From Verrucomicrobia subdivision 3 bacterium UBA3939 (GTDB lineage Bacteria; Verrucomicrobiota; Verrucomicrobiia; Limisphaerales; UBA3939), in the NCBI GenBank assembly GCA_002385705.1, contig DGDZ01000054.1:386-27154 (forward strand): a stretch of 26,769 nucleotides of DNA, read 5' to 3'. The translations under genes were made by a program, and so were the position numbers. Shown in pieces: positions 1-26,704 of the stretch. The notes under the pieces were generated by a model. The model was given only the letters and a program-made list of their open reading frames with translations. It did not search any database and was not told where the DNA came from. The number at the start of each line of letters is the position of its first letter. Positions within the stretch are counted from its first letter, which is position 1.

Positions 1-50
1 GAAGTCTGACTGCTGTCCCCGTGCTGCGGCTGAGGACAGCCGCGCGCCGG
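1..50. repeat. Copy A of a ~50-bp direct repeat (gaagtctgactgctgtccccgtgctgcggctgaggacagccgcgcgccgg). It contains the hairpin gctgtcc-N15-ggacagc.
   Basis: Direct sequence comparison with 165..214 shows 47/50 identical positions. The inverted 7-nt arms are read directly from the sequence. Confidence 0.6.
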
Positions 51-164
51 GCAGGCGCAGTCCTTCGGGTTCCGCGCGTGGACGAAGCGCGCGACTGCCG
101 GGTTCTGCCGGCGCTCATCGGCACCACCTGCCGGATTTGAAGGGTAGGTCTTTCTGCTGAACTC

Positions 165-214
165 GAAGTCTTGCTGCTGTCTCCGTGCTGCGGCTGAGGA
201 CAGCCGCGCGCCGG
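165..214. repeat. Copy B of the same ~50-bp repeat, 114 bp downstream of copy A. It lies just upstream of the pectate lyase gene.
   Basis: gaagtcttgctgctgtctccgtgctgcggctgaggacagccgcgcgccgg is near-identical to 1..50. Confidence 0.6.
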
Positions 215-309: not shown

Positions 310-2157
310 ATGCGTTTGACGTTGTTCCGAATCGGCATCTGCCTGCTCGTTCCTTCCATTCCGTCATTCTCACTCGCCGCCACCATCAGCACAGCCGTGG
401 GAAATGGCGCGGACGTCGAAATGCGCGAGCCAGGCAACGATCGCCTGAACGGGACGTCGATGAACACGCGAACCTCGGGCGCCGGTGATCGCAATGAAAT
501 CATCGGGCTGCGCTTTGATCTGTCCGGTTACGTGCCGGCGCAGGTGAGCAATGTTTCGTTGACGTTGATCAGCTATCGCACGAACGACCAGGTGCGGCAG
601 GTGCATGTGTATGGCGTGACCGAGGGCGCCACGAGCGGGACCGGGAAGTTCAACACGGCCACCTGGAGCGAGGAAGGACTCGAGGAGTTCGGCGATCTTC
701 CCGGGCTCGAAGTCACCGATGGCGATTTCCTCACCCAGAGCATCAATTCCAACAGCGTCACGTTCCTGGGCGCGCTGACGTTTCCGGTCACGCCCGAAGG
801 CGGGACGCTCGTGTTCACGAACGCGGCGCTGACGTCTTTCGTCCAGAGCCACACCGGCAAGCTCGTGATGCTGTTGCTGGCCGCCGGAAACACCAGCTCC
901 GGCCAGTCGCGCTTCGCAACACGGGAAGCCACCGCGACGGCGACCGGTGTTCTGACCGGTTCCGGCGGTGCGTTCGCACCGCGCCTGGATTTCGCCGGGG
1001 AGGGTATCGTGGACGGTGGCTTGCGCTTTACCAACATATGGCTGACGGAGGACGGCATCGTGGCGGCGGGAGAAGGTGGCACGAGCCTTGGGGATTACGC
1101 GATCCTTTCGGCGCCTGACCTGACGGTTCCCGCGGCGAGCTGGGCGGCGCTGGCGACGAACTCCTTCGACGCGGCGGGCTCGTTTGTCTTTACCAATCCG
1201 GTGCAGTTCAACGAGGGCGCGCGGTTCTTCCGCGTGCTGGAGGTGGACAGGCCGATCAACTTCGATCACGTGGGTTTCGCCGGTGTGGCGGGAACGCTCA
1301 CCGGAGGCGCAGGCGGGCCGACCCAGACGGTCAGCTCCTCCGCTCAGTTCATCAGCGCCGTGACCGCGACGGGCCCTCGCGTGGTCCAGGTCTCCGGGCA
1401 GATCGATCTGAACGGCTCGGGGACCGGCAGCGTGAACATTCAGTCGGACAAGACCATCGTCGGCCTGGGCACCAACGCGACGGTGCTCGGCCAGTTGCAG
1501 ATCAGCGGCCGAAGCAATGTCATCATCCGCAACCTCATCATCAGCAACAATGGCGAGGCGGAGAGCCTGGACGGCGTGCGGATCGTGAACGGCTCGCACC
1601 ATATCTGGGTGGATCACTGCACGTTTGTGGATTGCGGAGACGGCGAGCTCGACAACACGGTGGGCGCGGATTACATCACGATTTCCTGGTGCAAGTTCTA
1701 CTACACGCGGGACAACGGGCATAACTTCGTAAACCTCATTGCCGCGTCGGACTTCGACTCCGGCAATTACCGCATCACGTTTCATCACAACTGGTACAGC
1801 ACGATGTGCCGCCAGCGCATGCCGATGTCGCGCTACGGCACCGTGCACCTGTTCAACAACTTCTATAACTCGCCGGGAAACGGTTACTGCTCGAACGCCC
1901 GGACCAACGCGCAGTTCCTTTCCGAACACAACGTCTATCGCGATGTCAGAGATCCCATCTTCAAGGAAAGCAACGGGCGCATTCGAACGGTGGGGAATCT
2001 GTACCAGAACTGCACCGGCAGGATTGATCCGGGAACCGACGTGCTGGATCCGATCCTGACTCCGCCGCCGTACCCGTACAATCTGGACCCGGCGGATCTG
2101 GTGCCGTTCATCGTGACGAACAACGCCGGCGCGGGCAAAGGACCGTTCGCGCCCTGA
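310..2157 (+). CDS. Secreted pectate lyase, polysaccharide lyase family 1, with an N-terminal ~330-aa non-catalytic extension. The ORF is open from 250, but the signal-peptide-like MRLTLFRIGICLLVPSIPSFSLAA begins at the ATG at 310.
   Basis: PL1 signatures are present in the translation: NGSHHIWVDHCTF, GADYITISWCKF, and the R-rich RQRMPMSRYG segment (RxPxxR-like). A hydrophobic signal peptide follows the Met at 310. The stop is at 2157. Confidence 0.85.
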   Translation: MRLTLFRIGICLLVPSIPSFSLAATISTAVGNGADVEMREPGNDRLNGTSMNTRTSGAGDRNEIIGLRFDLSGYVPAQVSNVSLTLISYRTNDQVRQVHVYGVTEGATSGTGKFNTATWSEEGLEEFGDLPGLEVTDGDFLTQSINSNSVTFLGALTFPVTPEGGTLVFTNAALTSFVQSHTGKLVMLLLAAGNTSSGQSRFATREATATATGVLTGSGGAFAPRLDFAGEGIVDGGLRFTNIWLTEDGIVAAGEGGTSLGDYAILSAPDLTVPAASWAALATNSFDAAGSFVFTNPVQFNEGARFFRVLEVDRPINFDHVGFAGVAGTLTGGAGGPTQTVSSSAQFISAVTATGPRVVQVSGQIDLNGSGTGSVNIQSDKTIVGLGTNATVLGQLQISGRSNVIIRNLIISNNGEAESLDGVRIVNGSHHIWVDHCTFVDCGDGELDNTVGADYITISWCKFYYTRDNGHNFVNLIAASDFDSGNYRITFHHNWYSTMCRQRMPMSRYGTVHLFNNFYNSPGNGYCSNARTNAQFLSEHNVYRDVRDPIFKESNGRIRTVGNLYQNCTGRIDPGTDVLDPILTPPPYPYNLDPADLVPFIVTNNAGAGKGPFAP

Positions 2158-2164
2158 ACGACAG

Positions 2165-2190
2165 CCGGAGCGCGGACCGCGAGTCCGCGC
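2165..2190. repeat. REP-like element: CCGGAGCGCG head plus an 8-bp-stem hairpin (gcgcggac cgcga gtccgcgc). It sits immediately after the pectate lyase stop.
   Basis: The palindrome is read directly. The same head motif followed by a hairpin recurs at 2487, 4489, 13338, 26541 and 26751, and in reverse complement at 26724. Confidence 0.5.
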
Positions 2191-2289
2191 GGAGCGAGGG
2201 CTCGAAAGACGAAGAAAAGGTTTTGTCTCACACGCCAACAGCCTGTTGAACGGGAAGGGAACGGAAAGAACGGCCTGCCGTCGTTGCGG

Positions 2290-2321
2290 CCTGGCGACTT
2301 GGCGTCTTGGCGCCCTGGCGT
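2290..2321. repeat. Tandem octamer array x4: cctggcga / cttggcgt / cttggcgc / cctggcgt.
   Basis: Read directly. It lies in the 480-bp intergenic region upstream of the GH43-like gene. Confidence 0.5.
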
Positions 2322-2486
2322 TGAAACAGGTTTGGGAGCACGCACGATCGTGGTTCTTAACGCAAAGGCGCAAAGGCGCCAGGACGCAAAGGACGGCGAA
2401 CGGCAACGGCCTGAACCACGAAAGGCACGAAGGGGCACGAAAAGGAAGGCTTGGTTTCACGCGAAGCGCCGAAGGCCCGAAGGAAG

Positions 2487-2512
2487 CGGAGCGCCGACTC
2501 TGCGAGTCGCAG
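2487..2512. repeat. REP-like element: cggagcgccgactctgcgagtcgcag, with hairpin cgactc-tgc-gagtcg.
   Basis: It is 24/25 identical to the core at 26541..26565. Confidence 0.55.
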
Positions 2513-2640
2513 AGGCTTCGACAGCACTGCCTGCCTCGGATCTGCATGAGACCAGTGCGTCTGCTGCTTCCTGCATTGCTGCGGGTCACAGCTGGCGGTC
2601 GCGCTTTCCAAACCACCTATCGTTCGCTACCTTCGGGCGC

Positions 2641-3669
2641 ATGAAGACGCTTGCGTCAGTTCTCCTCGTCACCTTGCTCAGTGCTGCAGCCGGTCTTCGT
2701 GCGGATGACGTGTCGCCGGCGGGAAAGATCGCTCCCAAACCGCTCTTCCGGGATCCCATCTACGACGGTGCGGCGGACCCGGTCGTGATCTGGAATCGCG
2801 CGGAAAAGAAGTGGTTCATGTTTTACACCAATCGCCGGGCCAGTCAGACCAACGGCGTGAGCGGTGTCGAGTGGGTGCACGGCACGAAGATCGGCATTGC
2901 CGAATCGTCGGACGGCGGAGCCACCTGGACCTATCGCGGCACGGCCGATATTCGTCATGGCGGCGAGGGAATGACACATTGGGCGCCGGAGGTCATCGAG
3001 CATGACGGCCTCTATCACATGTATCTCACGTTTGTCCCCGGTATCTTCTCGAACTGGGGGCATCCGCGCGACATCCTGCACCTGACGAGCACGAACCTGC
3101 TGAACTGGAAATACGAATCGACTCTGAAACTGGCCGCGGACCGCGTCATCGACGCCTGTGTGTTGCGGCTGTCGGACGGGACCTGGCGCATGTGGTACAA
3201 CAACGAGCGCGACGGCAAATCCATCTACTACGCGGACAGCAAGGATCTCTACACATGGGAAGACAAGGGCAAGGCGCGCGGCACGAGCGAGCGCGGCGGC
3301 GAAGGCCCGACCGTGATGCACTGGAAGGGACGCTACTGGATGGTCGTGGACATCTGGGCCGGATTGCGGGTTTATCGTTCGGACGACGCGTTGACCTGGG
3401 AACGACAACCCACCGATCTGTTGTCCCAACCCGGCAAGGGCGAGGACGACGGCGTGGTGGGACAACACGCCGACCTCGTCGTCAGCGGCGATCGCGCCTT
3501 CCTCTTCTACTTCACACATCCGGGGCGCCGCGGGTCGAATGCGCGCGCCGACGGTTATGAGCAGCGGCGCAGTTCCATCCAGGTGGTGGAACTCTTCGAA
3601 AAGGACGGGTGGCTCACGTGCGATCGGGATCAGCCCACCTATATTCGCCTGGTTCCGCCGGAGCCGTGA
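2641..3669 (+). CDS. Secreted glycoside hydrolase with a 5-bladed beta-propeller, GH43-like. The ORF track starts at 2284, but the first 119 codons are a low-complexity, R/K-rich read-through of the repeat-rich intergenic region. The ATG at 2641 precedes a clear signal peptide, MKTLASVLLVTLLSAAAGLRA.
   Basis: Motifs seen: DPVVIWNRAEKKWFMFYT (N-terminal Asp blade), HWAPEV, DGTWRMWYN, and EGPTVMHWKGRYWMV (the EGP acid motif typical of GH43-type propellers). Confidence 0.6.
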   Translation: MKTLASVLLVTLLSAAAGLRADDVSPAGKIAPKPLFRDPIYDGAADPVVIWNRAEKKWFMFYTNRRASQTNGVSGVEWVHGTKIGIAESSDGGATWTYRGTADIRHGGEGMTHWAPEVIEHDGLYHMYLTFVPGIFSNWGHPRDILHLTSTNLLNWKYESTLKLAADRVIDACVLRLSDGTWRMWYNNERDGKSIYYADSKDLYTWEDKGKARGTSERGGEGPTVMHWKGRYWMVVDIWAGLRVYRSDDALTWERQPTDLLSQPGKGEDDGVVGQHADLVVSGDRAFLFYFTHPGRRGSNARADGYEQRRSSIQVVELFEKDGWLTCDRDQPTYIRLVPPEP

Positions 3670-3704
3670 ACCGGTTCGTGCGCGCCAACCGGACCTGACC
3701 CGGA

Positions 3705-4478
3705 ATGCAAGCGGTCCAAGCGACTGAAGCGGCCGTTTCGAAGGATTCATCGCGTGGCGCATGGCTTGCCCTTGCCTTGCTGGTGCCGGTCCCGAGCATC
3801 GGCACCGCTGCGGCGCTCTGGTGGTGGCCGGATCTGCCGGTCGGGAAGATCCTCTTCGTGGCGGCAAAGGTCTGGATCCTGGCCTTGCCTCTGGCATGGC
3901 TGGTCCTGGTCGAACGATCGCGGCCCGGCTGGTCGCCGCCGCACCATGGAGGCTTCGGCGTTGCCATCGGCACAGGTCTCGCCATTGCCGCGGTTATTGT
4001 CGGGGCCTACGCGCTGGTGCGGAAACTCAACCTGCTGGATGCCACGATCATCACGGAACGGGCGGCGTTGACGGGATTGAACCAGCCGGCGTTCTACATC
4101 GGCGGCGCGCTGTACTGGATCCTGTTCAATTCGTTGATGGAGGAATATGTGTGGCGGTGGTTCGTCTTTCGCAAGGCGGAGGCGGCGGTGGGCGGCAGGG
4201 CGGCGGTCGTCGTATCCGCGCTCGGTTTCACCGCGCATCATGTCATTGCACTGGCGGCCCAGTTCACCTGGCCGATCACCGTCCTTGCGTCACTCGGCGT
4301 GTTTATCGGCGGAGTCACCTGGAGCTGGCTCTACCTTCGCTACCGTTCCATCTGGCCGTGCTACGTCAGCCACGCGATCGTCGATACGCCAATCTTCCTG
4401 ATAGGGTGGCGGCTGATCTTTCACGAAGGAACCCTCCGGGCTCTTGAAAGCTGCAGCCCGGGCGTTGGTTGTGTCTGA
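3705..4478 (+). CDS. CPBP-family (CAAX protease / Abi-like) intramembrane metalloprotease.
   Basis: Multiple TM segments are present. The motifs EEYVWRWF (EExxxR), FTAHH (FxxxH) and SHAIVDT (HxxxD) occur in the canonical order for PF02517. Confidence 0.8.
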   Translation: MQAVQATEAAVSKDSSRGAWLALALLVPVPSIGTAAALWWWPDLPVGKILFVAAKVWILALPLAWLVLVERSRPGWSPPHHGGFGVAIGTGLAIAAVIVGAYALVRKLNLLDATIITERAALTGLNQPAFYIGGALYWILFNSLMEEYVWRWFVFRKAEAAVGGRAAVVVSALGFTAHHVIALAAQFTWPITVLASLGVFIGGVTWSWLYLRYRSIWPCYVSHAIVDTPIFLIGWRLIFHEGTLRALESCSPGVGCV

Positions 4479-4488
4479 GCTTCGCACT

Positions 4489-4511
4489 CCGGAGCGCGGC
4501 ATTCATGCCGC
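4489..4511. repeat. REP-like element: CCGGAGCGCG head plus hairpin gcggca-ttca-tgccgc, followed by ttc. It may act as a weak terminator for the CPBP gene.
   Basis: Read directly. It sits between the convergent CPBP and GH28 genes. Confidence 0.45.
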
Positions 4512-4607
4512 TTCAGGCTACGCCTGCACGTGCATCTGCGAATCAGGTTCCACCGTGCTCTGCAATCGGACGTAAAGCGAGCTGAAGCTCTTACCCGGGC
4601 CTTCCAT

Positions 4608-6287
4608 TCAAAAGCTCTGTTCCCTGACTGAATCCAGCCTTACCTCCGAGGTGTCACGGCTGTTGCGCAAGGCGAATCGCTCCACATTCTTCAGAACAAA
4701 CGACGGCCGGCCTTCGGCGCGATCCCACTTGATGTTCACCAGATCGACGTCTTTCACGTCGTCGAGCACAAACGCCGGGCGCTGGTCCTCATTCAGGAAA
4801 CGCACTTCCACATCCTTCAGTTCCACGCGCGCGGCGTGCCGGATGTAGAACCCGTAGGCCGGTGTGACGCCGAACATGGACGGCTCGGGATACGAATTCG
4901 CGTTCTCAGGAATCGCTCGCTCCGCCTGCTCGCGCGTGCCGCCGCCGCGGTAGTGGATCCGGATATTGTTCAGCGTCACGTCCTCGACCGGGTGCCCTTC
5001 GATCCCGGCGATGATGCAGGCATACTGCGGGTCCACGTCATAGGCGAACACGTTGCTGATGTGGACGCGGCGCAGCTTTCCGACGGGCACGCCTTCAGGT
5101 CCGCGCATGCGGCTGCCCAGCCGCAGGAACAGCGGTGACGTCGTCACGTCGCGCATCGTGATGTTGTTGATGGCCACATCCTCGAGCAGGCCGCCGTCCA
5201 CCGTTTCCAGCGCGATTCCGCGACAGCGGTCGAACACGCAGTTTGCGATCGTAATGTTCTTGAACCCGCCATTCGATTCCGTGCCGAACTTGATCCGGCC
5301 GGTGACGCCGTCGCGGTCAGGCGCGAGTTTCTGGGTGCGTTTGAACGTGCCGTCGAAGAACGTGCCCGGGTCGTAACCCGTCACCTGGCAATTGACGATC
5401 GTCACGTTCTCCGTGGCCTGCGCGTAACCGAGCCCGAAGGAACTCTTCAGCACAATCGCGTCGTCGTTCGGCGAATTGATGGTGCAGTTCGAGATGCGCA
5501 CATTGCGACAGGAATCGATGTCGAGCCCGTCGCGGTTGGTGTCGATCTTCAGATTGTCGATGGTGAGGTTGTCCACGCCCGTGGCCAGCAGGACGAAGTG
5601 GCCCCCCATGAGAACGGAGAAGTCGCGCAACACAACGTTGCGGCAGAGCTTGAGCGCGATGGCCTTGTTGCCTTCGCCTTCCATCGAAGGATCGAGCGGA
5701 GGGCGTGGGCCGGATGCATTGGTCACCCCGTAAGTGGTTTCGAGCGGATTGGTCACTCCGGTGCTGAACACGCCTGGCATGTCGCCCGCCCGGCTGGCCC
5801 GGCGCGGGCCTGGACCACGGCGCGTCAACCCTTTGCCGTCGATCCGCCCTGGCCCGAGGATGGAGACGTTCTCGAGGCCGATACCCCAGATCAGGCTGTT
5901 CTGCCAGTGGCTGTGGCCGAAGTCCTGGTACATGTCCCACTCGTTCGGCTCCGGCAGGTCGTAGCGCCCGCCGTGTTCCTGCGGGTTTGCCGCGAGCAAC
6001 GTCGCGCCCTGATCGAGATACAGCGCGATGTGGCTCTTCAGCCGAATGGAAAAGCTCAGGTAGGTTCCCGCCGGGAAATACACTGTGCCGCCGCCGCGTT
6101 CCGCGGCCGTTTCAATGGCCTTGTTGATGGCGTCCGTGTCGAGGGTCTTGCCGTCGCCGCGCGCCCCGAACGCCCGCACATCGTACACCGGGGCATTGGA
6201 GAGCAGGAGATCCTGCGCTGCTGCCGCCCACGGAAACAGCATGCCGACACCAAGCAGAAGACCGAGCAGCCGGGTTTCCATTCTCAT
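4608..6287 (-). CDS. Secreted glycoside hydrolase family 28 protein (pectate-lyase-fold polygalacturonase / rhamnogalacturonase-like), right-handed beta-helix.
   Basis: Signal peptide MRMETRLLGLLLGVGMLFPWAAAA. The VYDVRAFGARGDGKTLDTDAINKAIE N-terminal motif is present. GH28 active-site-like blocks are TNRDGLDIDSCRNV, NSPNDDAIVLKSS and RIKFGTES. Confidence 0.8.
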   Translation of the reverse strand: MRMETRLLGLLLGVGMLFPWAAAAQDLLLSNAPVYDVRAFGARGDGKTLDTDAINKAIETAAERGGGTVYFPAGTYLSFSIRLKSHIALYLDQGATLLAANPQEHGGRYDLPEPNEWDMYQDFGHSHWQNSLIWGIGLENVSILGPGRIDGKGLTRRGPGPRRASRAGDMPGVFSTGVTNPLETTYGVTNASGPRPPLDPSMEGEGNKAIALKLCRNVVLRDFSVLMGGHFVLLATGVDNLTIDNLKIDTNRDGLDIDSCRNVRISNCTINSPNDDAIVLKSSFGLGYAQATENVTIVNCQVTGYDPGTFFDGTFKRTQKLAPDRDGVTGRIKFGTESNGGFKNITIANCVFDRCRGIALETVDGGLLEDVAINNITMRDVTTSPLFLRLGSRMRGPEGVPVGKLRRVHISNVFAYDVDPQYACIIAGIEGHPVEDVTLNNIRIHYRGGGTREQAERAIPENANSYPEPSMFGVTPAYGFYIRHAARVELKDVEVRFLNEDQRPAFVLDDVKDVDLVNIKWDRAEGRPSFVLKNVERFALRNSRDTSEVRLDSVREQSF

Positions 6288-6380: not shown

Positions 6381-6421
6381 CGGGACAATTCCGCGCGCAT
6401 ATGCGACAAGAATTGTCCCGG
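6381..6421. repeat. Copy 1 of a 41-bp nested palindrome: cgggacaattc-cgcgcgcatatgcgac-aagaattgtcccgg. It lies 94 bp upstream of the GH28 start.
   Basis: The outer 11-12-bp inverted arms (gggacaattc / gaattgtccc) and the inner palindrome gcatatgc are read directly. The second copy at 6478..6518 differs at 1 nt. Confidence 0.65.
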
Positions 6422-6477: not shown

Positions 6478-6518
6478 CGGGACAATTCCGCACGCATATG
6501 CGACAAGAATTGTCCCGG
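6478..6518. repeat. Copy 2 of the 41-bp nested palindrome. It lies 56 bp upstream of the PGPGW gene start.
   Basis: cgggacaattccgcacgcatatgcgacaagaattgtcccgg. Confidence 0.65.
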
Positions 6519-6573
6519 TCGACTGGATGGAATCCACTACTTGCGGAGTGCAGGGGATGACGGACGTTGAGGC

Positions 6574-6867
6574 ATGGAACCCCAGAATCCAAAGTCCGGG
6601 ACAAGCCGGCTGCGCAAGGCGGTGGGCTACGACAAGCTCTCGCCGGCGGTGCGTCGCGTGGTGTGCGGCATTGTGGGTGGTTTTCTCCTGTTCATCGGGG
6701 TGGCACTGCTCTTTCTGCCCGGGCCGGCGTTCGTGGTCATCCCGCTGGCGCTGGCGGTGCTCGCGATGGAGTTCGCCTGGGCCCGGCGGTACTGGGACAA
6801 GGTCCGCGGCTGGGCGGAGAAAGCAAAGCAACGCGCGTGTCGGAAGCGGGCTACTGCTCGCGGATGA
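6574..6867 (+). CDS. Small two-TM membrane protein of the PGPGW family (PF09656-like).
   Basis: LLFLPGPAFVVIPLALAVLAMEFAW contains the PGP(A/G)(F/W) signature flanked by hydrophobic helices. A GAGG lies 4 nt before the ATG. The 3' end overlaps the pheT stop by 17 nt on the opposite strand. Confidence 0.55.
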   Translation: MEPQNPKSGTSRLRKAVGYDKLSPAVRRVVCGIVGGFLLFIGVALLFLPGPAFVVIPLALAVLAMEFAWARRYWDKVRGWAEKAKQRACRKRATARG

Positions 6868-9328
6868 CCGCCTGGAGGCTGGTCTTCAACGCTTCCACCA
6901 GTTTGTCGTGCGCCGCGTTCACCTCCGCATCGGTCAAGGTGCGTTCGGCACTGCGATACGTGAACGCATAGGCCATGCTCTTCTGGCCGGCAGGAATGTT
7001 CTTTCCGCGGAACACGTCGAACAGTTCCACCGATTCGAGATTGGCCGGTTTGGCTTTGCGCACGGTCTGCAGCACGGCTTCGTGCGTGACCGCTTCGGGC
7101 ACGACCATTGCCACGTCGCGCCGGCTCGATGGAAACGCAGGCAGCGGCTTGAAGGACTTCGCCGGGTTCCGCCGCGCGATCAACTGGTCGAAGCTCAGTT
7201 CCGCAAGAAAGACCGGGTCGCGCAGGTCATACTGACGGGCGAGGGCGGGATGCAGTTGGCCCATTTCGCCCAGGGGCAGTTTGCCGATCTGCACGTCGGC
7301 CGATTCGACGAACAGTCCTGCGGCTTCCGGGCGTCGGGTGTAGACCAGACCGCGCACGCCGAAGTGTTCAAAGAACTCCTCAAGGAATCCCTTGAGATCG
7401 TGCAGGTCGAACTTCGCGCCGCGCCCACTGCCGCTCCAGAAGAGCGGATCGCGCTGTCCGGTCAGGGCGATCGCGACGCGGCGTTCCTCCCGGATCTGTT
7501 CGCCCTGCCTGGAGAACACGCGTCCGATCTCGAACAGGCCGACGTCGTAGTTCTTCCGGTTCACGTTGTGCCGCAGTGCGTGGATCAGGCCCACCAATAG
7601 CGTGGGGCGCAACACGTCCATGTCTGCGCTGAGCGGATTGGCCAGGTCCACCAGGTGAACGCCGGATCTCGAGTTTTGAACCTCGGATCTGGAGATCAGC
7701 GTCTGGCCCTGGGCTTCGTTCAGGCCGAGGCCGGTCAACAGGCGCCGCGCTTCGGCAATTTGATCGTGCACGGCATCGAACTCGTTCGAACCAATGGCGC
7801 CGCGCGGCGGCGTGGCGGGGATCTTGTCAACGCCATGGAGCCGCGCGACCTCCTCGATGAGATCGACCTCGCGTTTCAGATCCACGCGGAAGCTCGGGAT
7901 GCGGAAGGTGGCGGGTTCGACCGGTGCGTCCGCGCCAACGGGTTTGGGCTTGCGATGGGTAATCTTCAATCCGAGCTGGCCGAGGTAATACTCGACTTCC
8001 TCGGGTTTGAGCTCGATCCCGAGCAGTTCGTTGACCTTGTGATGCCGCAAGGTGATCTCGCGCGGAGCGGCGGGTTTGGGATACGCATCGACGACACCGG
8101 CGGCGAGCGTTCCGCCGGCGGTCTCGAGAATCAGTTGCGCGGCGCGTTGGCTGGCCCAGTCGCAGATGCCCACGTCGGCCCCGCGCTCGAAGCGGTAGCT
8201 GGATTCGCTGCGCAGGCCGAGCGCCTTGCTGGTGCGGCGGATATTGCCGGGATGGAAGTTGGCGCTTTCGATCAACACATCGACCGTGCGTTCGTTGATC
8301 TCGGTGTTCTGGCCGCCCATGATTCCGGCGAGTGCGATGCCTTTCTGTTCGTCGGCGATCAGCAGCATATCCGCGTTGAGCACGCGCTGCTGGCCGTCGA
8401 GCGTTGTGAACTTCTCCCGGTCGGTCGCGCGGCGCACCACAATGGCGGGCTTCCCGTCCGCGCCCGGGGCGATAAGGTGATAGTCGAACGCGTGCAACGG
8501 CTGGCCGACTTCCATCATGACGTAGTTCGTCACGTCCACCACGTTGTTGATGCTGCGGATGCCGACCTTCTCGAGGGTGGTGCGGAGCCAGTCGGGGCTG
8601 GGGCCGATCTTCACGCCCTGAACCACGCGCGCCGTGTACCGCGGACACAATTCAGGGTCGGCAATACGCACGGTGACAAGACTCGACACCGGGGTCGCGC
8701 TTTCCTGGATTTTGATCTCGGGCAGGCGGAGAGGATTGCCCGTGAGGGCGGCGATTTCGCGAGCGATGCCGATGACGCTGTTCCAATCGGGCCGGTTCGG
8801 CGTGGTTTCCAGGTCGAACATCTCGTCGCTGCCGCCGCGCCCGAGGTACTCCGAGAACGGCTGGCCGACTTTGGCGTCCTCGCGCAGGATCAGCAGGCCT
8901 TCCTCGCGCTTGAGGCCGATGCTCTCCGGATCGATGCCGAGTTCATCCGCCGAGCACATCATTCCGTGCGATTCGACGCCGCGGATTTTGCCGACCTTGA
9001 TGGTAAATGGTTCCTTTTCGCCCGGTTTTAACGGCAGCGAGGCGCCCGGGAGGATCAGCGGAACCTTGTCGCCGGGCTTGAAATTGTTGGCGCCGCACAC
9101 GATCTGCCGCTCGCCCTGGCCGTCGTTGACGCGGCAGACGGAGAGTTTGTCGGCGTTCGGATGTTTGTCGCGGGTGAGGACCTGGGCGACGACGATGCCT
9201 TCGAACTCGCCGCCGATTCTGTGAATGCCTTCGACTTCCAAGCCGAGCATGGTGAGTCGATCGGCCAGTTCATCCGCCGACCAATCGAAATCCACGTACT
9301 GCCTGAGCCAATTCAGAGTGACTTTCAT
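6851..9328 (-). CDS. pheT: Phenylalanine--tRNA ligase beta subunit. The ORF is open to 9367 with a non-ATG first codon. The conserved N-terminus MKVTLNWLRQYVDFD starts 13 codons in.
   Basis: The canonical PheT N-terminus (MK..LNWLR.YV) is present. The tRNA-binding, B3/B4, B5 and C-terminal FDX-ACB-like regions are recognisable (e.g. HAFDY, MGGQNTEI). Length is 825 aa. Confidence 0.95.
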   Translation of the reverse strand: MKVTLNWLRQYVDFDWSADELADRLTMLGLEVEGIHRIGGEFEGIVVAQVLTRDKHPNADKLSVCRVNDGQGERQIVCGANNFKPGDKVPLILPGASLPLKPGEKEPFTIKVGKIRGVESHGMMCSADELGIDPESIGLKREEGLLILREDAKVGQPFSEYLGRGGSDEMFDLETTPNRPDWNSVIGIAREIAALTGNPLRLPEIKIQESATPVSSLVTVRIADPELCPRYTARVVQGVKIGPSPDWLRTTLEKVGIRSINNVVDVTNYVMMEVGQPLHAFDYHLIAPGADGKPAIVVRRATDREKFTTLDGQQRVLNADMLLIADEQKGIALAGIMGGQNTEINERTVDVLIESANFHPGNIRRTSKALGLRSESSYRFERGADVGICDWASQRAAQLILETAGGTLAAGVVDAYPKPAAPREITLRHHKVNELLGIELKPEEVEYYLGQLGLKITHRKPKPVGADAPVEPATFRIPSFRVDLKREVDLIEEVARLHGVDKIPATPPRGAIGSNEFDAVHDQIAEARRLLTGLGLNEAQGQTLISRSEVQNSRSGVHLVDLANPLSADMDVLRPTLLVGLIHALRHNVNRKNYDVGLFEIGRVFSRQGEQIREERRVAIALTGQRDPLFWSGSGRGAKFDLHDLKGFLEEFFEHFGVRGLVYTRRPEAAGLFVESADVQIGKLPLGEMGQLHPALARQYDLRDPVFLAELSFDQLIARRNPAKSFKPLPAFPSSRRDVAMVVPEAVTHEAVLQTVRKAKPANLESVELFDVFRGKNIPAGQKSMAYAFTYRSAERTLTDAEVNAAHDKLVEALKTSLQAVIREQ

Positions 9329-9386
9329 TGGGGCGGCAACGGTAATTGGCGGGGAGGAGGCAGTCAACAGAGGGGGTTAAGGAAAA

Positions 9387-9436
9387 CACCCAACATCCAA
9401 ACACCCAACCTCCAACACCGAACATTCAACATCCAA
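9387..9436. repeat. Tandem heptanucleotide array, 7 units of CAYCCAA on the plus strand (TTGGRTG on the pheT-sense strand): cacccaa catccaa acacccaa cctccaa caccgaa cattcaa catccaa.
   Basis: Read directly. It is located 59-108 nt upstream of the pheT start, inside the pheT / SPFH divergent region. Confidence 0.6.
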
Positions 9437-9579
9437 TGAGGACGGCTCCAACAAGGCAAAGCTGAAGAGCTGAAATCAGAGTCAAGGAACCGTTTGCGGC
9501 TCGGTGGGCGTGATGTTCATTCCTGCTTGCTCCACGTGACAGCCGATCGGGCAACACAACGTTTTTCTGAAGAAATCGC

Positions 9580-9633: not shown

Positions 9634-10644
9634 ATGAACTCGAATCCTGTGAAGTCGGTCAGTCGCGAGCGAACGGTCAACGCGGTCAATGGCTGGGCCA
9701 TGTTGTTCTTCAATGTCCTGCTCCTGCTGGGCGGAATAGCCGGGATCGTCGCAACGGTGACGAAGGTCGCGCGCACCAATGATCCGGCGTATCTCTGGTG
9801 GCTTGTTCCGTTCATATTCCTCGAGTTGCTTGCTTTCATCCTGATGTTCGGTCACTTCACGCTGCAGCCGAACGAGGCGCGGGTGTTGATCCTCTTCGGC
9901 GCCTACAAGGGAACCGTGCGCGAGAGCGGGTTCTGGTGGGCGAACCCGTTCTATTCCCGGGTCCGGACGAAAGTGCCGGTGCGTCCGACGACGGTGAACG
10001 TGCAGAGGGGGACTCACGGGCGCGATGTGGCGAGCGTCGTGCACCTGACGCGGGGAACGAAGATTTCGTTGCGCGCGCAGAATTTCAACAGCGACAAGCT
10101 GAAGGTGAACGACAAACGCGGGAACCCGATCGAGATCGCCGCGGTCGTGGTGTGGCGGGTGAAGGACACCGCGAGGGCGGCGTTCGACGTGGACGATTAC
10201 GAGAGTTACGTGCACATCCAGAGCGAGGCGGCGATCCGTCATATCGCGAGCCTTTACGCGTATGACCGCGGGGACGAGCATGAGCCGACGTTGCGCGAGA
10301 GCACGGACGAGGTGTCGGCGGGTTTGATGAAGGAGCTGCAGGAGCGTCTGGAGAAGGCGGGCGTGGTGGTCGAGGAAGCGCGTCTGACGCACCTGGCGTA
10401 TGCGCCGGAGATTGCGCAGGCGATGTTGCGCCGGCAGCAGGCGGAGGCGGTGATTGCGGCGCGGCAGAAGATCGTGCACGGTGCGGTGAGCATGGTGGAT
10501 ATGGCATTGCGCGAATTGGCGGACAAGGCTGTGGTGAAGCTGGACGACGAGCGGAAGGCGGCGATGGTGAGCAACCTTCTGGTGGTGTTGTGCAGCGAAT
10601 CGGAGACGACGCCGGTGATCAATACGGGCACGCTGTATGCATAG
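9634..10644 (+). CDS. SPFH / band-7 (stomatin-prohibitin-like) membrane protein. The ORF track begins at GTG 9628, but the ATG at 9634 has better Shine-Dalgarno spacing.
   Basis: N-terminal TM ([18 protein letters not shown]... [18 protein letters not shown]), then SPFH-like blocks ([36 protein letters not shown]), then an A/E/R-rich helical C-terminus. Confidence 0.8.
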
Positions 10645-10649
10645 GACTC

Positions 10650-10814
10650 ATGCCTGAAGAGCGAAAGTCATTCCTGTTGCGGATCCCGCCCGATTTGTGG
10701 AAGGAGCTCGAGAAGTGGGCGGCGGACGAGCTGCGCAGTGTGAACGGGCAGATCGAATACATCCTGCGCCAGGCGGTGGAGAAACGCCGCCGGGCGCAGG
10801 AAAAGGAGGAATGA
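10650..10814 (+). CDS. Small Arc/MetJ-type ribbon-helix-helix DNA-binding protein (54 aa). It is 6 nt downstream of the SPFH gene.
   Basis: [47 protein letters not shown] matches the Arc-like beta-strand (SFLLRIP) plus two-helix pattern of PF03869-like proteins. The ORF track's upstream start at 10590 overlaps the SPFH gene and is not needed. Confidence 0.6.
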
Positions 10815-10836
10815 CGAAGGCAAGCCTTCGACGCCC

Positions 10837-10857
10837 CACACCGAACCTCCAACCTCC
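10837..10857. repeat. Short second copy of the heptad family: caccgaa cctccaa cctcc.
   Basis: It uses the same heptad units as 9387..9436 in the same orientation, 23 nt after the RHH gene stop. Confidence 0.45.
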
Positions 10858-11024
10858 GGGGCTCATTCTCGCCATTTTTCCCGTAGGGACTGCCGGGAAC
10901 AGCCCACCGCTCCGGCTAACGCGGCAGGCTGTCGGTTGTCCTTTCGGGAAGAAGAAACGGGCAGGCGCGGGTTGAATCCGGGACGCCACGCGGGTGCGGT
11001 TTCGAAAATCGCGCGGAATTTATA

Positions 11025-11052
11025 TTGGCACCCGCTTATTGTTCATGATAAC
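11025..11052 (+). promoter_or_regulatory. Weak candidate promoter for the flotillin-like gene (TTGGCA -N17- tGATAAC).
   Basis: It sits in the 330-bp gap before 11145. A strong Shine-Dalgarno (GAGGA) is 6 nt before ATG 11145. Confidence 0.2.
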
Positions 11053-11144
11053 CACGGAGCCATTACAGACGACCGTCTGTATGGCCAAATGAACCCGCTT
11101 TGCAAAAATCATTCGGGAGGAATCCCCTAACAACTTGAGGACCT

Positions 11145-13322
11145 ATGTTCTGGCTTAAACTTCTCATCGCATTTGTTGTCGTGGTCGCGATGTTTCTGGG
11201 AGTGGCATCGCTCTTCTGCATTCGCAAGATTCAGCCCGGCCGCGCCGGTGTGAAAACCGGCTGGGGCGGGATCAAGGTGTCCTTCGACTGGATGATCCGG
11301 ATCCCGCTGGTCCAGACCTATCACATCGTCGATATCTCGGTGAAGAAGCTCGAGATCTCGCGCAAAGGCAAGGACGGGCTGGTGTGCAAGGACAACATTC
11401 GCGCGGATATCTCGGTGGCATTCTACATCCGCGTGGAAGCGACGGAGGAAAGCGTGCGGAAGGTGGCGCAGATGCTGACGCCGGAGCGCGTGTCGGATAT
11501 GGTGCAGTTGCGGGAGCTGTTCGAGGCGAAGTTTTCCGAGGCGCTCAAGACGGCGGGCAAGCAGATGGAATTTCACGAGCTGTTCACGGAGCGGATCAAG
11601 TTCCGCGATCAGATCCAGGCGACGATCGGCAAGGACCTGGACGGGTTCCTGTTGCAGGACGTGGCGATCGACTACCTCGAGCAGACGCCGCTGGATCAGC
11701 ATGATCCGGACAACGTGCTCGACGCGGAGGGCATCAAGAAGATCACGCAGATCACGCAGCGCGAGCGGGTGGTTGCGAACGAGCACGCCCAGCGCGCCAG
11801 CGTGCAGATCGAGAAGGAGAACGCGGACGCGGACATTGCGCGGCGCGAGCAGAAGCGGCGCAACGAAGAGGACAATGCGCGGCAGACGCGTGCGATCACC
11901 GAGGTGCGGGCCAACGAGGAGGCCGAAGCGCGCAAAGTGATCGAAGCCCGCCGGCTCGAGGTTGAGGCCAAGCGGCTGGAAGTGGACGAGGCGATCCGGT
12001 TGCGGACGGAGGACATGAACCGCGCCGTGCAGGAGCGCGAATACACGGTGAAGAAGGAGCGCCAGCGGCTCGAACAGGAAGCGCTGCAGGAGGGCGAGGA
12101 AGCGCGCGTCCGGCGCGAGCGCACGGTCGCCCTGGCCGAGCTGGACAAGGACGCGAAGGTCGCGGAAGCCGGTGTCGAGGTCGAGCGCAAGCGCGCGATC
12201 GTCGTCGCCGAGCAGAAGGCCGTCGTCCAGCAGGAGGAGGAGAAGCTGAATATCGAAGCGCGCATGACCGCCGAGCGCGTGCGCGAAGTGACGCTCATCG
12301 AGGCGGACATGAACGCCAAGAAGGAGCAGGTGGAGAAGGTGGTGGCGGCCGAGGCGCAGAAGGAGGCCGAGCAGCACATGGCGGAAGCCGAGAAGATCAA
12401 GGTGATCACCGCGGCGGAGGCGGCGCGCGAAGCGGCGTTGCGCGAAGCCGAGCGCATCCAGACCATCGCGGAGGCCGAAGCGAAGGCGTCCGAGCGCAAG
12501 CGTCATGCGATGGAGCAGGAAGCCGAGGGTGTCGCGGCGCAGGAAGCCGCCAAAGGCATTGCCGAGGCGAAGGTCATCACGGCCAAGGCCGGCGCGAAGA
12601 AGGTCGATGCGGCGGCGATCCGCGAGTTGGGCCTGGCCGAGGCGGATGTGATCAAGGCCAAGGGCGACGTGACGGCGGAAGTGACGCAGATGCAGGCCGA
12701 GGCGGAAGCGGAAGGCACGAAGGACAAGGAGCTGGCGACTGCGGCCGGCATCCAGGCCAGGGGCCTTGCCGAAGCGAAAGCCATCGAAGAGAAGGCGAAA
12801 GCGATGAAGCTGCTGCACGAGGCGGGGCAGGCGCACGAGGAATTCCGCCTGCGCCTGGCGAAGGAGCGCGACGTCGAGCTCGCCGCCATCAACGTGGAAC
12901 GTTACATCGCGGAAGCGCACTCGAACATCGTGGGCGAAGCGCTCAAGAACGCGAAGATCGACATCGTGGGAGGCGAGAACGACTTCTTCGAGAAGGTGGT
13001 GCGGGCCGTGGGCAGGGGCAAGGCCGTGGACCGGCTGGTCCAGAGCAGCGCCACGCTGACCGACCTCAAGACCAGTCTGTTCAACGGCGACGCGGAACAC
13101 TTCCGGGCGAAGCTGCGGCAGTGGGTGAAGGACTTCGGGGTCACGAGCGAGGACCTGAAGAACCTCACTGTGGCGGCGTTGCTGGCGAAACTGATCGCAT
13201 CGACGAAGGACAGCGGGCTGCAGTCGGTTCTCCGGTCGGCTCAGGCGATGGCAAAAGAGAGCGGGCTGGGCGACGTGCTGGCTTCGTCCGTGATTTCGGA
13301 ACCCGAGCTTGCCAAGCTGTAG
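11145..13322 (+). CDS. Flotillin-like protein (SPFH domain plus a long E/A/K/R-rich coiled coil, YqiK/FloT-like), 725 aa.
   Basis: N-terminal TM LKLLIAFVVVVAMFLGVASLF, then an SPFH core (TYHIVDISVKKLEI...ADISVAFYIRV), then ~350 aa of EA-repeat coiled coil and a globular C-terminal tail. This is the typical flotillin architecture. Confidence 0.85.
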   Translation: MFWLKLLIAFVVVVAMFLGVASLFCIRKIQPGRAGVKTGWGGIKVSFDWMIRIPLVQTYHIVDISVKKLEISRKGKDGLVCKDNIRADISVAFYIRVEATEESVRKVAQMLTPERVSDMVQLRELFEAKFSEALKTAGKQMEFHELFTERIKFRDQIQATIGKDLDGFLLQDVAIDYLEQTPLDQHDPDNVLDAEGIKKITQITQRERVVANEHAQRASVQIEKENADADIARREQKRRNEEDNARQTRAITEVRANEEAEARKVIEARRLEVEAKRLEVDEAIRLRTEDMNRAVQEREYTVKKERQRLEQEALQEGEEARVRRERTVALAELDKDAKVAEAGVEVERKRAIVVAEQKAVVQQEEEKLNIEARMTAERVREVTLIEADMNAKKEQVEKVVAAEAQKEAEQHMAEAEKIKVITAAEAAREAALREAERIQTIAEAEAKASERKRHAMEQEAEGVAAQEAAKGIAEAKVITAKAGAKKVDAAAIRELGLAEADVIKAKGDVTAEVTQMQAEAEAEGTKDKELATAAGIQARGLAEAKAIEEKAKAMKLLHEAGQAHEEFRLRLAKERDVELAAINVERYIAEAHSNIVGEALKNAKIDIVGGENDFFEKVVRAVGRGKAVDRLVQSSATLTDLKTSLFNGDAEHFRAKLRQWVKDFGVTSEDLKNLTVAALLAKLIASTKDSGLQSVLRSAQAMAKESGLGDVLASSVISEPELAKL

Positions 13323-13337
13323 AGGCGCCGCGGCGCT

Positions 13338-13358
13338 CCGGAGCGGACGCGTGTCCGC
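13338..13358. repeat. REP-like element (ccggagcg + hairpin gcggac-gcgt-gtccgc) in the 54-bp flotillin / giant-gene spacer. It is preceded by the 12-nt perfect palindrome gcgccgcggcgc.
   Basis: Read directly. Confidence 0.45.
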
Positions 13359-13376
13359 CCCGAACTGGTTTCGATC

Positions 13377-18872: not shown

Positions 18873-18880
18873 AACGCAAT

Positions 18881-19714
18881 ATGAAAAGAATCATCAGACG
18901 AGTCCAGAACCTGGGCCAGAAAGCGGCCCAGCTCCAACAGGCCATTCAAAACGTGCCGCCGAAGATCGCGGAGGTGCGGCAGGCGGTGGCCATGACGACC
19001 GGGCAGTTACAGCAGTTGCGAGCCGACCTCCGGGCCGGCGCGGCGGACCTGCGCGCCGACAACGAAGGCAGCCTGGTGCAGGCGTTGAACGAAGTGAACG
19101 GCGCCACGCAGGTCTTCGAACAGGCCGGGTATGAACTGACGGGCGTGGACATGGAATTGAGTCCGAACCAGCGCCTGATCGTTCACCTGGCGCGTTTCGA
19201 AGTGGTGGATCAGAGAACGCTCCAGTCCCTGCTCAGGGCCAATCAGCATGCAAAGACCGTTCACGGCATTCTCTGGTCGTTGATCCGCGCCGAGGAAATG
19301 GCGGCGCAGGTGGACGTGACGAACATGGTTTACCGGGAACTCATTGTGCACGTCGGGCCGATTCCGTCGGTGCGGATGAGCTGGGGCTATGCCGAGGAGG
19401 AGGAGGAGGAGGCACCGGTGGCACAGCCGGCGCCCGTTCAGACGACCGTGGTGTCCGGTGCCGCGCCGGCATCGGCGTCCGCTCCGACACAGTTCGCACA
19501 AACGACGTTTTTCGAATCGCGGTCGGTGCCGCAGCCGCAGGGTTCGGCGGCGGTGGCGAGCACGGCGACTTCGGATGTTTCGGCGACAACGACCGTCGCG
19601 CCCGCGGGCCAGGCGGAGGAATCGAGAGAGATGACATCGGCCGATTGGCGGCGGGATGCGCTGGAGCGGTTGAAGAAGAACCCGCATGTCTCGAAGTATC
19701 AGCGGCGGTTCTGA
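18881..19714 (+). CDS. Hypothetical 277-aa protein with an N-terminal coiled coil (Q/A/L-rich), a poly-Glu tract (EEEEEE), an A/T/S/V/Q-rich disordered region and a basic C-terminus. Its start is 8 nt after the giant gene stop.
   Basis: The ORF is in frame. Its composition is protein-like and differs from the antisense frames. Its tight spacing suggests translational coupling to the giant gene. Confidence 0.5.
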   Translation: MKRIIRRVQNLGQKAAQLQQAIQNVPPKIAEVRQAVAMTTGQLQQLRADLRAGAADLRADNEGSLVQALNEVNGATQVFEQAGYELTGVDMELSPNQRLIVHLARFEVVDQRTLQSLLRANQHAKTVHGILWSLIRAEEMAAQVDVTNMVYRELIVHVGPIPSVRMSWGYAEEEEEEAPVAQPAPVQTTVVSGAAPASASAPTQFAQTTFFESRSVPQPQGSAAVASTATSDVSATTTVAPAGQAEESREMTSADWRRDALERLKKNPHVSKYQRRF

Positions 19715-20686: not shown

Positions 20687-20710
20687 GCGGGCGTTTCACC
20701 CGCCCGCTTT
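20687..20710 (+). terminator. Rho-independent terminator: gcgggcg-tttcacc-cgcccgc followed by TTT. It closes the plus-strand block.
   Basis: A 7-bp GC stem and a T-run on the plus strand, 15 nt after stop 20672. It overlaps the last codons of the convergent methyltransferase gene. Confidence 0.55.
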
Positions 20711-21604: not shown

Positions 21605-21605
21605 A

Positions 21606-22637: not shown

Positions 22638-22695
22638 GGTGGGGAAGCAAACGCACTGGACGAATGGAATTCAACACTTTTCTGATGGAGCAGGG

Positions 22696-22717
22696 GCGGG
22701 GACGGCCTCGTCCCCGC
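22696..22717 (-). promoter_or_regulatory. Strong GC hairpin (gcggggacg-gcct-cgtccccgc) in the 287-nt rplT-pheS spacer, 59-80 nt upstream of the pheS start. It is a possible attenuator or structured leader, with no U-tract.
   Basis: The 9-bp perfect stem is read directly. Confidence 0.3.
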
Positions 22718-22894
22718 GGCGTCACGCATCCACCTTTGTTTTTCCCTTTGTTGGAAACTTCGTCGGTCCTGGAGGGGAAACGGATGACGACGTCAAAAGC
22801 CGAAAGCTTCCGGCGAAGTCTGCGACAAAGCTGAAGCCTGCTGCTACTGGCGTGACGCAGTCCTGCGCACGCAACCCGGCCGCGCCCTCGCGTC

Positions 22895-22915
22895 GTCAAT
22901 CATCAATCGTCAATC
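22895..22915. repeat. Tandem heptad gtcaatc / atcaatc / gtcaatc immediately after the rplT stop.
   Basis: Read directly. Confidence 0.5.
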
Positions 22916-22924
22916 GCAAGGCCG

Positions 22925-23293: not shown

Positions 23294-23310
23294 AAACTCT
23301 CAGGCTGAAA

Positions 23311-26540: not shown

Positions 26541-26565
26541 CGGAGCGCGACTCTGCGAGTCGCAG
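26541..26565. repeat. REP-like element core: cggagcgcgactctgcgagtcgcag (hairpin gcgactc-tgc-gagtcgc).
   Basis: It is identical over 19 nt to 26751..26769 and 24/25 to 2487..2512. Confidence 0.6.
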
Positions 26566-26704
26566 CACGACCGAAGGCTCAAAAGCGGTCAGGGATCCGC
26601 AGGCAATCGCGTCTCCCAATGCGTGGATGTTCTAATGGAATCGATGGTGCGTCCGCGCGTTTGCTGAACTCGGAGTCGCACGCTTCGTCCACGCGCTGCG
26701 ACTG

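Follow-up and report, generated by a model that had tools for sequence, protein, structure and literature searches.

What are the short G+C-rich hairpins that recur between the genes of Verrucomicrobia subdivision 3 bacterium UBA3939, each standing behind the same few unpaired bases? The window, by which we mean the whole 26,769-nt stretch of contig DGDZ01000054.1 that was analysed, is part of the chromosome of an uncultured member of the Verrucomicrobiota living in anaerobic digesters, and it holds 10–11 such modules. A first, sequence-only reading had listed seven of them (at 2165, 2487, 4489, 13338, 26541, 26751 and 26724–26736), all of which are present with the head and stem that it described; its count of at least seven was on the low side, three more lying at 23615, 24–50 and 188–214. 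We think it probable that the repeats form a system of repetitive extragenic palindromes (REPs), including inverted REP doublets that fold into hairpins (REPINs), together with a REP-associated tyrosine transposase (RAYT). This system has a non-canonical GGAGC tag and several hairpin sub-families and occurs in several metagenome-assembled genomes (MAGs) of Verrucomicrobiota, most of which bear the label subdivision 3 or Limisphaerales.

In its basic form a module opens with an unpaired 5' tag, CGGAGC, continues with a G+C-rich hairpin whose stem starts with GCG, and usually closes with a tail, AGCA. The tag, in which GGAG stands one base from the stem, was constant in all sub-families and species examined, and behind this one head come at least seven types of stem, each perfectly self-complementary. 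Between sub-families (GCGACTC, GCGGGTC, GCGGCTG, GCGGCA, GCGGAC and others) both arms change together. Modules occur solo, often a few bases past a stop codon, as inverted doublets that form the ends of elements of 105–210 nt, and in tandem arrays. In the window we found the following.

24 to 50, minus strand: type-d module (reverse complement CCGGCGCGCGGCTGTCCTCAGCCGCAG) with the variant head GGCGC (CCGGCGCGC), in the next-to-last unit of a 163-nt array
74 to 96, plus strand: array-unit segment GCGCGTGGACGAAGCGCGCGACT, 96% complementary to 26674–26696 of the 194-nt element
188 to 214, minus strand: type-d module with head CCGGCGCGC, 96 nt upstream of the pectate lyase gene and within the final unit of the 163-nt array
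2165 to 2196, plus strand: solo type-c module, CCGGAGC, GCGCGGAC cgcga GTCCGCGC, GGAGCG, with head CCGGAGCGCG
2487 to 2609, plus strand: degenerate but complete a-b element of 123 nt, 5' end CGGAGCGCcGACTCTGCGAGTCGCAG, 3' end GCTGCGGGTCACAG..TCGCGCTTTCC, with a 7-nt insertion
4489 to 4515, plus strand: type-e module, CCGGAGC GCGGCA ttca TGCCGC TTCA, 11 nt past the CAAX protease stop
13338 to 13358, plus strand: solo type-c module, CCGGAGC(G)GAC gcgt GTCCGC (stem GCGGAC/GTCCGC)
23615 to 23654, plus strand: type-d module with inner repeat CGGAGCGCGGCTGTCCCCAGCCGCAGCAGGTGGACGAAGC, stem GCGGCTG/CAGCCGC, 95 nt upstream of rpmI (minus strand)
26541 to 26734, plus strand: 194-nt inverted-repeat element, 5' end CGGAGCGCGACTCTGCGAGTCGCAGCACG, 3' end CGCGCTGCGACTG-GTCCCGCagaGCGGGAC-CAGTCGCGCTCC, stem GCGACTC/GAGTCGC
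26735 to 26750, plus strand: 16-nt linker with type-b hairpin GGGTCgcaGACCC, between two tandem 194-nt copies
26751 to 26769, plus strand: start of the second tandem 194-nt copy (period 210), cut by the window end

The unit had first been drawn as head plus hairpin. That much stands, and the real unit is larger. The copy at 2487 (head GCGGAGCGCC, stem CGACTC/GAGTCG) is the 5' end of the 123-nt element, which aligns end to end with eight a-b elements of other Verrucomicrobia and ends 31 nt upstream of the start of the GH43 gene (2641). Likewise, the reverse copy at 26724–26736 is the last 13 nt of the element at 26541–26734. Because of the complementarity between 74–96 and 26674–26696, the families of the 163-nt array and of the 194-nt element share the inner part of their terminal repeats. 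No intact inverted partner was found for the type-e module at 4489, which sits in a 129-nt gap between convergent genes; type-e modules at two other loci (L018 and L033; L-numbers denote the loci and contigs compared) form inverted doublets of 105–107 nt.

The plainest account of such a pattern would be that G+C-rich composition alone produces it, by placing a frequent short word next to chance palindromes, and the word count by itself agrees with this: CGGAGCG occurs 19 times in the window against 14.9 ± 4.1 in shuffles and is not over-represented. The sequence-only reading had put the repeats far above chance for a 9–10-mer, which fails for the word count alone and holds for the distribution of the head and for the composite of head and hairpin. 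Ten of the 19 copies of CGGAGCG and six of the seven of CGGAGCGCG fall in the intergenic 12.6% of the window (binomial P ~3e-5), a percentage that rests on a gene list in which 6527–9031 was miscalled. A perfect hairpin with a stem of 6 bp or more began no further than 4 nt after GGAGC in 8 places; 200 dinucleotide shuffles gave 1.07 ± 1.0 (maximum 4), which makes this an 8-fold excess. Over 182 kb of Verrucomicrobial sequence, such a hairpin followed GGAGCGCG in 40 of 70 cases (57%) compared to 3.9% for permuted 8-mers. In a 43.6-kb supercontig that reconstructs the source locus, with 14.7% intergenic sequence by the corrected gene list, 16 of 19 composites were intergenic. As identical 26-nt modules also recur in many Verrucomicrobia MAGs, and elements of 163–194 nt recur at 89–98% identity, we consider the compositional account refuted.

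The spread of the family became apparent when GTDB species genomes were searched with the 17-mer GACTCTGCGAGTCGCAG, which gave 73 loci, ~21 of them in Verrucomicrobia MAGs (soil, groundwater, Limisphaerales, subdivision 3). Its context in all of these MAGs is cGGAGCGCGACTCTGCGAGTCGCAGC, or GGACCGC, and in eleven cases its partner is an inverted CGGAGCGCGGGTCTG(C/T)GACCCGCAGC module. Sub-families recurring across MAGs with the same head include GCGGCA/GCGGCG/GCGACC (ttca loop, doublets of 105–107 nt), GCGGAC and GCGGCTG. In a scan of viral contigs the type-a module had 0 matches. A further hairpin sub-family with the same head, GGAGC(C/G)(A)GCGGACA gcct TGTCCGC, was seen at 15283, 15661 and 20682 of L080 and at 6479 and 6544 of L007, in relatives that also carry the DUF3686 operon described below. 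Separately, MAGs of Alistipes and Rikenella contain a high-copy repeat of their own, ...GGCCCGCGCGACTCTGCGAGTCGCAG, with the same 20-nt hairpin as the Verrucomicrobial type a and different flanks (loci L009, L010, L014, L016, L020, L021, L025–L028, L031, L036, L039, L049–L051, L053, L056, L058, L060, L067, L073 and L076).

Many copies turned out to be the termini of inverted-repeat elements of 105–210 nt, resembling REPINs or miniature inverted-repeat transposable elements (MITEs), which supports the earlier suggestion of a mobile miniature element. Their length is 123, 163 and 194 nt in the window species, compared with ~107 nt in other, related Verrucomicrobia MAGs. The 194-nt element, with inverted ends CGGAGCGCGACTCTG... 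and ...CACAGTCGCGCTCC, occupies 4–5 places in the 43.6 kb at 86–100% identity, twice as tandem pairs with a period of 210 nt; the right end of the window falls 19 nt into the second copy of such a pair. At the left, the window end cuts an array of 5–6 units with a 163-nt period upstream of the pectate lyase gene. This array is whole at 6736–7548 of L109, a 70-kb contig which, like L110, L114–L116 and L124, comes from another assembly of the window species. Each array unit opens with CGGAGCGCGGCTGTCCTCAGCCGCAGCAGGTGGACGAAGCG, and the two final units, those in the window, carry the module inverted in situ. A CRISPR-like array was rejected as a description of the 163- and 210-nt tandem repeats; whole units repeat, and there are no unique spacers.

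In related MAGs we found eleven a-b pairs, in which a type-a and a type-b module face head-outward, ten of them spaced 105–107 nt and one 69 nt apart. The ends of the ~107-nt element are invariant across MAGs, and its 55-nt centre is variable. The two ends carry different palindromes, each self-compensated (GACTC..GAGTC versus GGGTC..GACCC, alike at 8 of 13 positions). What is conserved is thus the hairpin and its unpaired tag, not the stem sequence, and this is the signature of single-strand recognition rather than of a double-strand terminal repeat. The same observation counts against ordinary MITEs, that is, internally deleted copies of an insertion sequence (IS) with a DDE transposase, moved in trans through their terminal inverted repeats, in which the internal hairpins would be incidental. 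Elements of 107–194 nt with terminal inverted repeats of 25–45 nt, folding like Correia or ERIC elements into long hairpins (z-scores of single elements, folded as DNA, –2 to –5.6) and keeping their ends while the centre drifts, are what such MITEs would look like. A reader of double-stranded terminal repeats has no need, however, for termini that are each a perfect palindrome and that differ between the two ends. Nor was a target-site duplication visible at any of the eleven a-b elements, and solo modules are common. No transposase, of the DDE type or any other, was found in 100 neighbouring open reading frames (ORFs) of 22 module-bearing loci among the 25 of 68 Pfam families listed, a set that left out frames overlapped by longer spurious ORFs, such as the Y1 gene of L024. 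Together with the Y1/RAYT gene flanked by modules in five organisms, described next, this makes ordinary MITEs a very improbable explanation.

The enzyme that a REP-RAYT system calls for was found just outside the window. A tblastn search with two transposase sequences gave a lead at 304–1089 of L110 (minus strand), ~0.5–1.2 kb upstream of the first base of the window, which was then checked by Pfam, NCBIfam, PDB and fold searches. The gene, at 304–1011 of L110 (minus strand; GTG start as in the JGI call) and also in L124, encodes a 235-aa HUH/Y1 protein, P0008. Thus the RAYT/IS200-like tyrosine transposase that the sequence-only reading had proposed to look for exists in two independent assemblies of the same species, flanked by modules in both. 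By far the best model for P0008 was REP_Tyr_transpos (NCBIfam NF047646; E 3.3e-20, 72.4 bits), and its score against Pfam Y1_Tnp, 37.6 bits, passed the cut-off of 23. The sole sequence match in the PDB was 4ER8, the E. coli TnpA-REP, at an identity of ~14–25%; relative to it, P0008 has an N-terminal extension of ~45 aa. In the AlphaFold model the core has a pLDDT of 80–93, and Foldseek placed 4ER8 first among PDB entries (E 3.7e-5), followed by 29 IS200/IS605 Y1 transposases.

NHVH, W181 and Y202-I-E-x-N-P (YIExNP) are invariant in 24 homologues of P0008 and align to HMH and YIYINP of 4ER8. The YIExNP motif matches the 'Y---NP' signature of class 2, the TnpA-REP class (PMC6006769), and within that class the P0008 consensus NHVH/WQ/YIENNP appears closest, judged by motif only, to subclass 2.4. 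Homologues of P0008 number more than 7,700, many of them annotated RayT by JGI. Most are on contigs of 1–2 kb, as expected for genes bracketed by repeats. P0008 itself forms one cluster at 100% identity, the next homologue being 69% identical, in incomplete assemblies that collapse repeats.

The P0008 gene is embedded in the 163-nt array that the left end of the window cuts, in L110 and independently in L124. It lies between inverted type-d modules, CGGAGCGCGGCTG...CAGCCGCAGCA, located at 277–302 and 1044–1075 of L110, whose heads both face the gene in the two assemblies: CCGGAGCGCGGCTGTCCTCAGCCGCAG begins 1 nt past the stop, and on the upstream side ~35 nt separate the start from the end of the inverted copy, which has head CCGGCGCGC. 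Homologues 65–73% identical in four other organisms (L119, L120, L121/L122 and L123) have CGGAG-headed GCGGC...GCCGC modules 2–37 nt from a gene end, with further inverted doublets of 106–147 nt nearby. A RAYT-like gene is therefore physically associated with these modules in five species. This flanked-gene layout is the REPtron arrangement of E. coli and Pseudomonas (PMC3333891, PMC2817692). A second Y1 gene was seen at 1199–1654 of L024 (plus strand), in a Verrucomicrobia MAG with a-b elements. It is IS200-like (Pfam E 5e-21, motif YIAGQEERH) and is flanked by a different palindrome family, ACAACCCCGTTGGGGTTGT, which is abundant in these MAGs, so that several hairpin-repeat/Y1 systems coexist there.

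How might such an enzyme act on the modules? For TnpA-REP of E. coli the substrate is a folded single-stranded REP, of which both the conserved 5' motif and the hairpin are required, and the enzyme cuts DNA and joins it again (PMC3333891, PMC3479197, PMC8266576). Following that model, we infer that the RAYT mobilises the modules: a RAYT-class HUH/Y1 transposase, presumably single-copy, would bind the hairpin in single-stranded DNA, as on the lagging-strand template, reading the CGGAGC tag as a guide or recognition sequence. By cutting and rejoining the strand, it would let modules spread, duplicate, invert and delete, and doublets and tandem units would arise. GC skew is positive over the whole window and the head lies on the plus strand in all 6 solo or 5' modules, which fits exposure of the lagging-strand template, in a sample of n = 6 only. 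One enzyme may serve all the hairpin sub-families.

Comparison of assemblies indicated that the repeats vary from strain to strain. The number of 210-nt units between the LDcluster4 and chorismate genes is one in L114 and two in L115, L116 and the window, all from one species, and the forward units of the 163-nt array number 4 in L109 and 3 in L110. In one copy of the 194-nt element the hairpin loop is flipped. At the junction of the genes for the 725-aa protein and the DUF3686 ATPase, three relatives (L081–L083; proteins 73–77% identical) have module-free spacers of 12–33 nt compared to 54 nt in the window, where the module at 13338 occupies the spacer between the stop (13322) and the next start (13377). 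In an orthologous pair, L046 and L054, the element ends are identical at 57 of 57 positions, with flanks ~80% and centres ~60% identical.

Several of these results, and some others, weigh against a REP-RAYT system of the proposed kind. The identity of the L046/L054 ends suggests, besides selfish spread, selection or gene conversion acting at fixed loci. The tag CGGAGC is not the GT[AG]G of canonical RAYT-associated REPs (PMC3733652, PMC6006769), and the REP_Tyr_transpos score of P0008 stays below the curated cut-off of 80. The RAYT gene lies outside the window. Where it would be expected, L109 shows array units and nothing else, so the linkage in L110 could be specific to a strain or reflect an assembly path through repeats. 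Type-d modules alone were seen next to a RAYT; ~180 kb of Verrucomicrobial loci showed no enzyme adjacent to types a, b, c or e, among the 25 of 68 Pfam families listed and in frames not overlapped by longer ORFs. Finally, no pair of empty and filled sites was obtained at nucleotide resolution, and transposition is thus only what we infer.

The placement of the modules bears on another explanation, in which they are host RNA elements, 3'-end hairpins that terminate transcription or shield mRNA from exonucleases, are kept by selection and have only a secondary association with the RAYT. Heads do lie 5–18 nt past same-strand stops at 2165, 4489, 13338 and in the first array unit, and modules begin 1–4 nt past the stops of RAYT genes. 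The statement that copies are mostly at gene 3' ends was partly right: it applies to 2165, 4489 and 13338 (head 8, 11 and 16 nt past the same-strand stop, the first of these being the TGA of the pectate lyase gene) and not to 2487, 23615 and 26541. A check of stop-codon bias gave a modest enrichment only, with 7.6% of modules within 20 nt past the end of a long ORF compared to 2.0% of random positions. Copies also lie upstream of genes and antisense to local transcription (23615, 26541, 24–50 and 188–214) and in arrays of 2–6 units, which counts against such a role.

Selection for an RNA hairpin would agree with the perfectly kept element ends and decaying centre at the orthologous locus, and both mRNA stabilisation and transcription termination have been reported for E. 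coli REPs (PMC6006769). No module has a T-run behind it, however, and a terminator scan of 2100–4700 placed none at the modules. A simple stability hairpin also leaves the conserved unpaired head and tail unexplained. RNAalifold, applied to ten a-b elements, returned an end-to-end stem only; there were no compensatory changes, no covariation outside the end stems, and the idea of a structured RNA in the a-b elements was dropped. A search of Rfam 15 gave no match at the gathering score and, permissively, three chance-level matches elsewhere (E up to 5). An RNA-processing enzyme, offered earlier as an alternative to the transposase, found no support. Mimicry of a Shine-Dalgarno sequence by GGAG was also rejected; the head at 13338 is 35 nt from the next start, and elsewhere heads lie past genes. 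We consider it unlikely that the modules are primarily host RNA elements, though rather less so than that they are MITEs. An effect of the hairpins on transcripts may nevertheless accompany a REP-RAYT system. In a bolder version, the Verrucomicrobiota RAYT lineage would read a shared guide (CGGAGC...AGCA) plus hairpin shape and tolerate many hairpin sequences, so that a single domesticated enzyme could maintain a whole REP superfamily throughout these Verrucomicrobiota MAGs, which the host would have co-opted as 3'-end signals. This is a speculative idea that we hold as doubtful, if somewhat less so than a primary role as host RNA elements. On this view, the perfect conservation of element ends between orthologous loci and the position of modules shortly past stop codons would be signs of the co-option, in a group whose terminators are uncharacterised.

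Returning to the REP-RAYT system as the probable explanation, the repeats can be set beside the known ones. With E. coli REPs, bacterial interspersed mosaic elements (BIMEs) and TnpA-REP (PMC3333891, PMC3479197, 4ER8) they share short G+C-rich extragenic palindromes and an unpaired 5' tag and, as in the REPtron, many copies, inverted doublets and an apparently single HUH/Y1 gene between inverted copies. The tag is CGGAGC here and GTAG there, the stems are perfect here and bulged there, and the doublets of 105–210 nt have a non-repeated or family-specific centre in place of the short linker of BIMEs. As with Pseudomonas REPINs (PMC6006769), two REPs in inverted orientation, folding together as one long hairpin, appear to be what replicates. 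Singlets resemble remnants, and the RAYT is repeat-flanked and probably low-copy, as in REPINs with group 2/3 RAYTs. The phylum, tag and RAYT subclass differ from those of Pseudomonas, as do the several hairpin sub-families under one tag and the tandem arrays with periods of 163 and 210 nt, the RAYT gene being embedded in one of them.

Subclass 2.4 of TnpA-REP (Bertels group 4; PMC6006769), which is scattered over various phyla, offers a good fit of motifs, its NH[IFV]H, WQ and YIxNNP corresponding to NHVH, FWQ and YIENNP, and its three G-C pairs at the base of the stem correspond to GCG. Its REPs carry GT[AG]G feet, however, and we saw no REP insertions inside the gene here. From TIRYT/TIRtrons and CGTC-tagged REPs it is known that inverted repeats other than GTAG ones, in moderately abundant families, may flank RAYT-like genes, and that a palindrome can be tagged by another tetranucleotide (PMC3733652). 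Neither of these fits the present family: GGGGWSAS is common to the TIRYT repeats, and the CGTC repeats, which lack an associated transposase, begin their stem with two A-T pairs (PMC3733652). The Verrucomicrobia REPs in that survey are GTAG only (Opitutus terrae; PMC3733652).

Two further kinds of element can be compared. IS200/IS605 elements also use a Y1 HUH enzyme that reads sub-terminal hairpins and a 5' guide tetranucleotide on single-stranded DNA, but their tyrosine motif is Y---Q, not Y---NP, and they occur in many autonomous copies, each with a left and a right end of its own, rather than as thousands of gene-less hairpins. Correia/NEMIS and ERIC are likewise intergenic elements of 100–200 nt with inverted ends of ~26 nt that fold into long hairpins. 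They lack an internal palindrome in each end, however, and Correia has a TA target duplication. We know of no Y1 partner for them.

To our knowledge, nearly all that has been established about REP/RAYT systems comes from Proteobacteria, where the tags are GTAG or GTGG. The kind is well known; for this lineage and this sequence tag, no published description of the repeat family or of its sequences was found in the searchable literature. Several hairpin sequences under one different tag provide a natural test of what a RAYT reads, and the proposed enzyme-module pairing, P0008 with a type-d module, is directly testable in vitro. The repeats also have a practical side. Four independent assemblies (L003–L006) end at window position 23687, ~35 nt beyond the 23615 module, and both window ends (1 and 26769) and several assemblies' contig ends lie inside or beside repeats. 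Contigs break at these repeats, which limits assembly of the window species and explains its broken assemblies; the repeats also create many spurious small ORFs in MAG annotation.

The genes among which the modules lie are as follows.

310 to 2157, plus strand: pectate lyase gene (start 250 or 310), TGA stop
2641 to 3669, plus strand: GH43 gene
3705 to 4478, plus strand: CAAX protease gene
4608 to 6281, minus strand: GH28-like gene
6574 to 6867, plus strand: PGPGW gene
6851 to 9328, minus strand: pheT
9634 to 10644, plus strand: Band 7 gene
11145 to 13322, plus strand: gene for the 725-aa protein
13377 to 18872, plus strand: DUF3686 ATPase gene
20696 to 23520, minus strand: methyltransferase, pheS, rplT and rpmI
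23978 to 26256, minus strand: aminotransferase IV and chorismate-binding enzyme

A plus-strand gene called at 6527–9031 was rejected, the region being pheT on the minus strand, and a search of the window found no tRNA or tmRNA. L20, PheS and the DUF3686 ATPase have identical counterparts among NCBI MAG proteins labelled Verrucomicrobiota, and contigs near-identical to the window are present in several ENA, JGI, NCBI and Logan assemblies. The conserved cluster at 9634–19714 encodes a Band 7/SPFH protein, a small ribbon-helix-helix (RHH) protein, the 725-aa protein, which has no Pfam match, the 1831-aa ATPase (DUF3686, DUF7902 and AAA domains) and a 277-aa protein. Relatives of the N-terminal region of the ATPase are 67–78% identical in at least 10 metagenome contigs and ~46–54% identical in marine ones. 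The 725-aa gene is directly upstream of the ATPase gene in L081–L083 and L086, as in the window, and not in several others.

Other repeats were noted in the intergenic regions. A 41-nt unit, CGGGACAATTCCGC(G/A)CGCATATGCGACAAGAATTGTCCCGG, with 12-nt inverted ends of its own, occurs in two copies (6381–6421 and 6478–6518; 98% identical, at a distance of 97 nt) where the GH28-like and PGPGW genes diverge, and resembles a paired operator or a further small palindromic element. The long intergenic regions 2200–2480 and 23690–23930, beside modules, are filled by word-like tracts rich in purines (ACGGCGAACGGC, CACGAAAGG and CGCAAAGG), and the first of these regions has an imperfect inverted repeat (2286–2330 / 2360–2400). 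A CA-rich short-period repeat, AACATCC / AAACACCC (periods 7, 15 and 21), is found at 9385–9440 (16745–16796 of L109), immediately upstream of the start of pheT on the minus strand.

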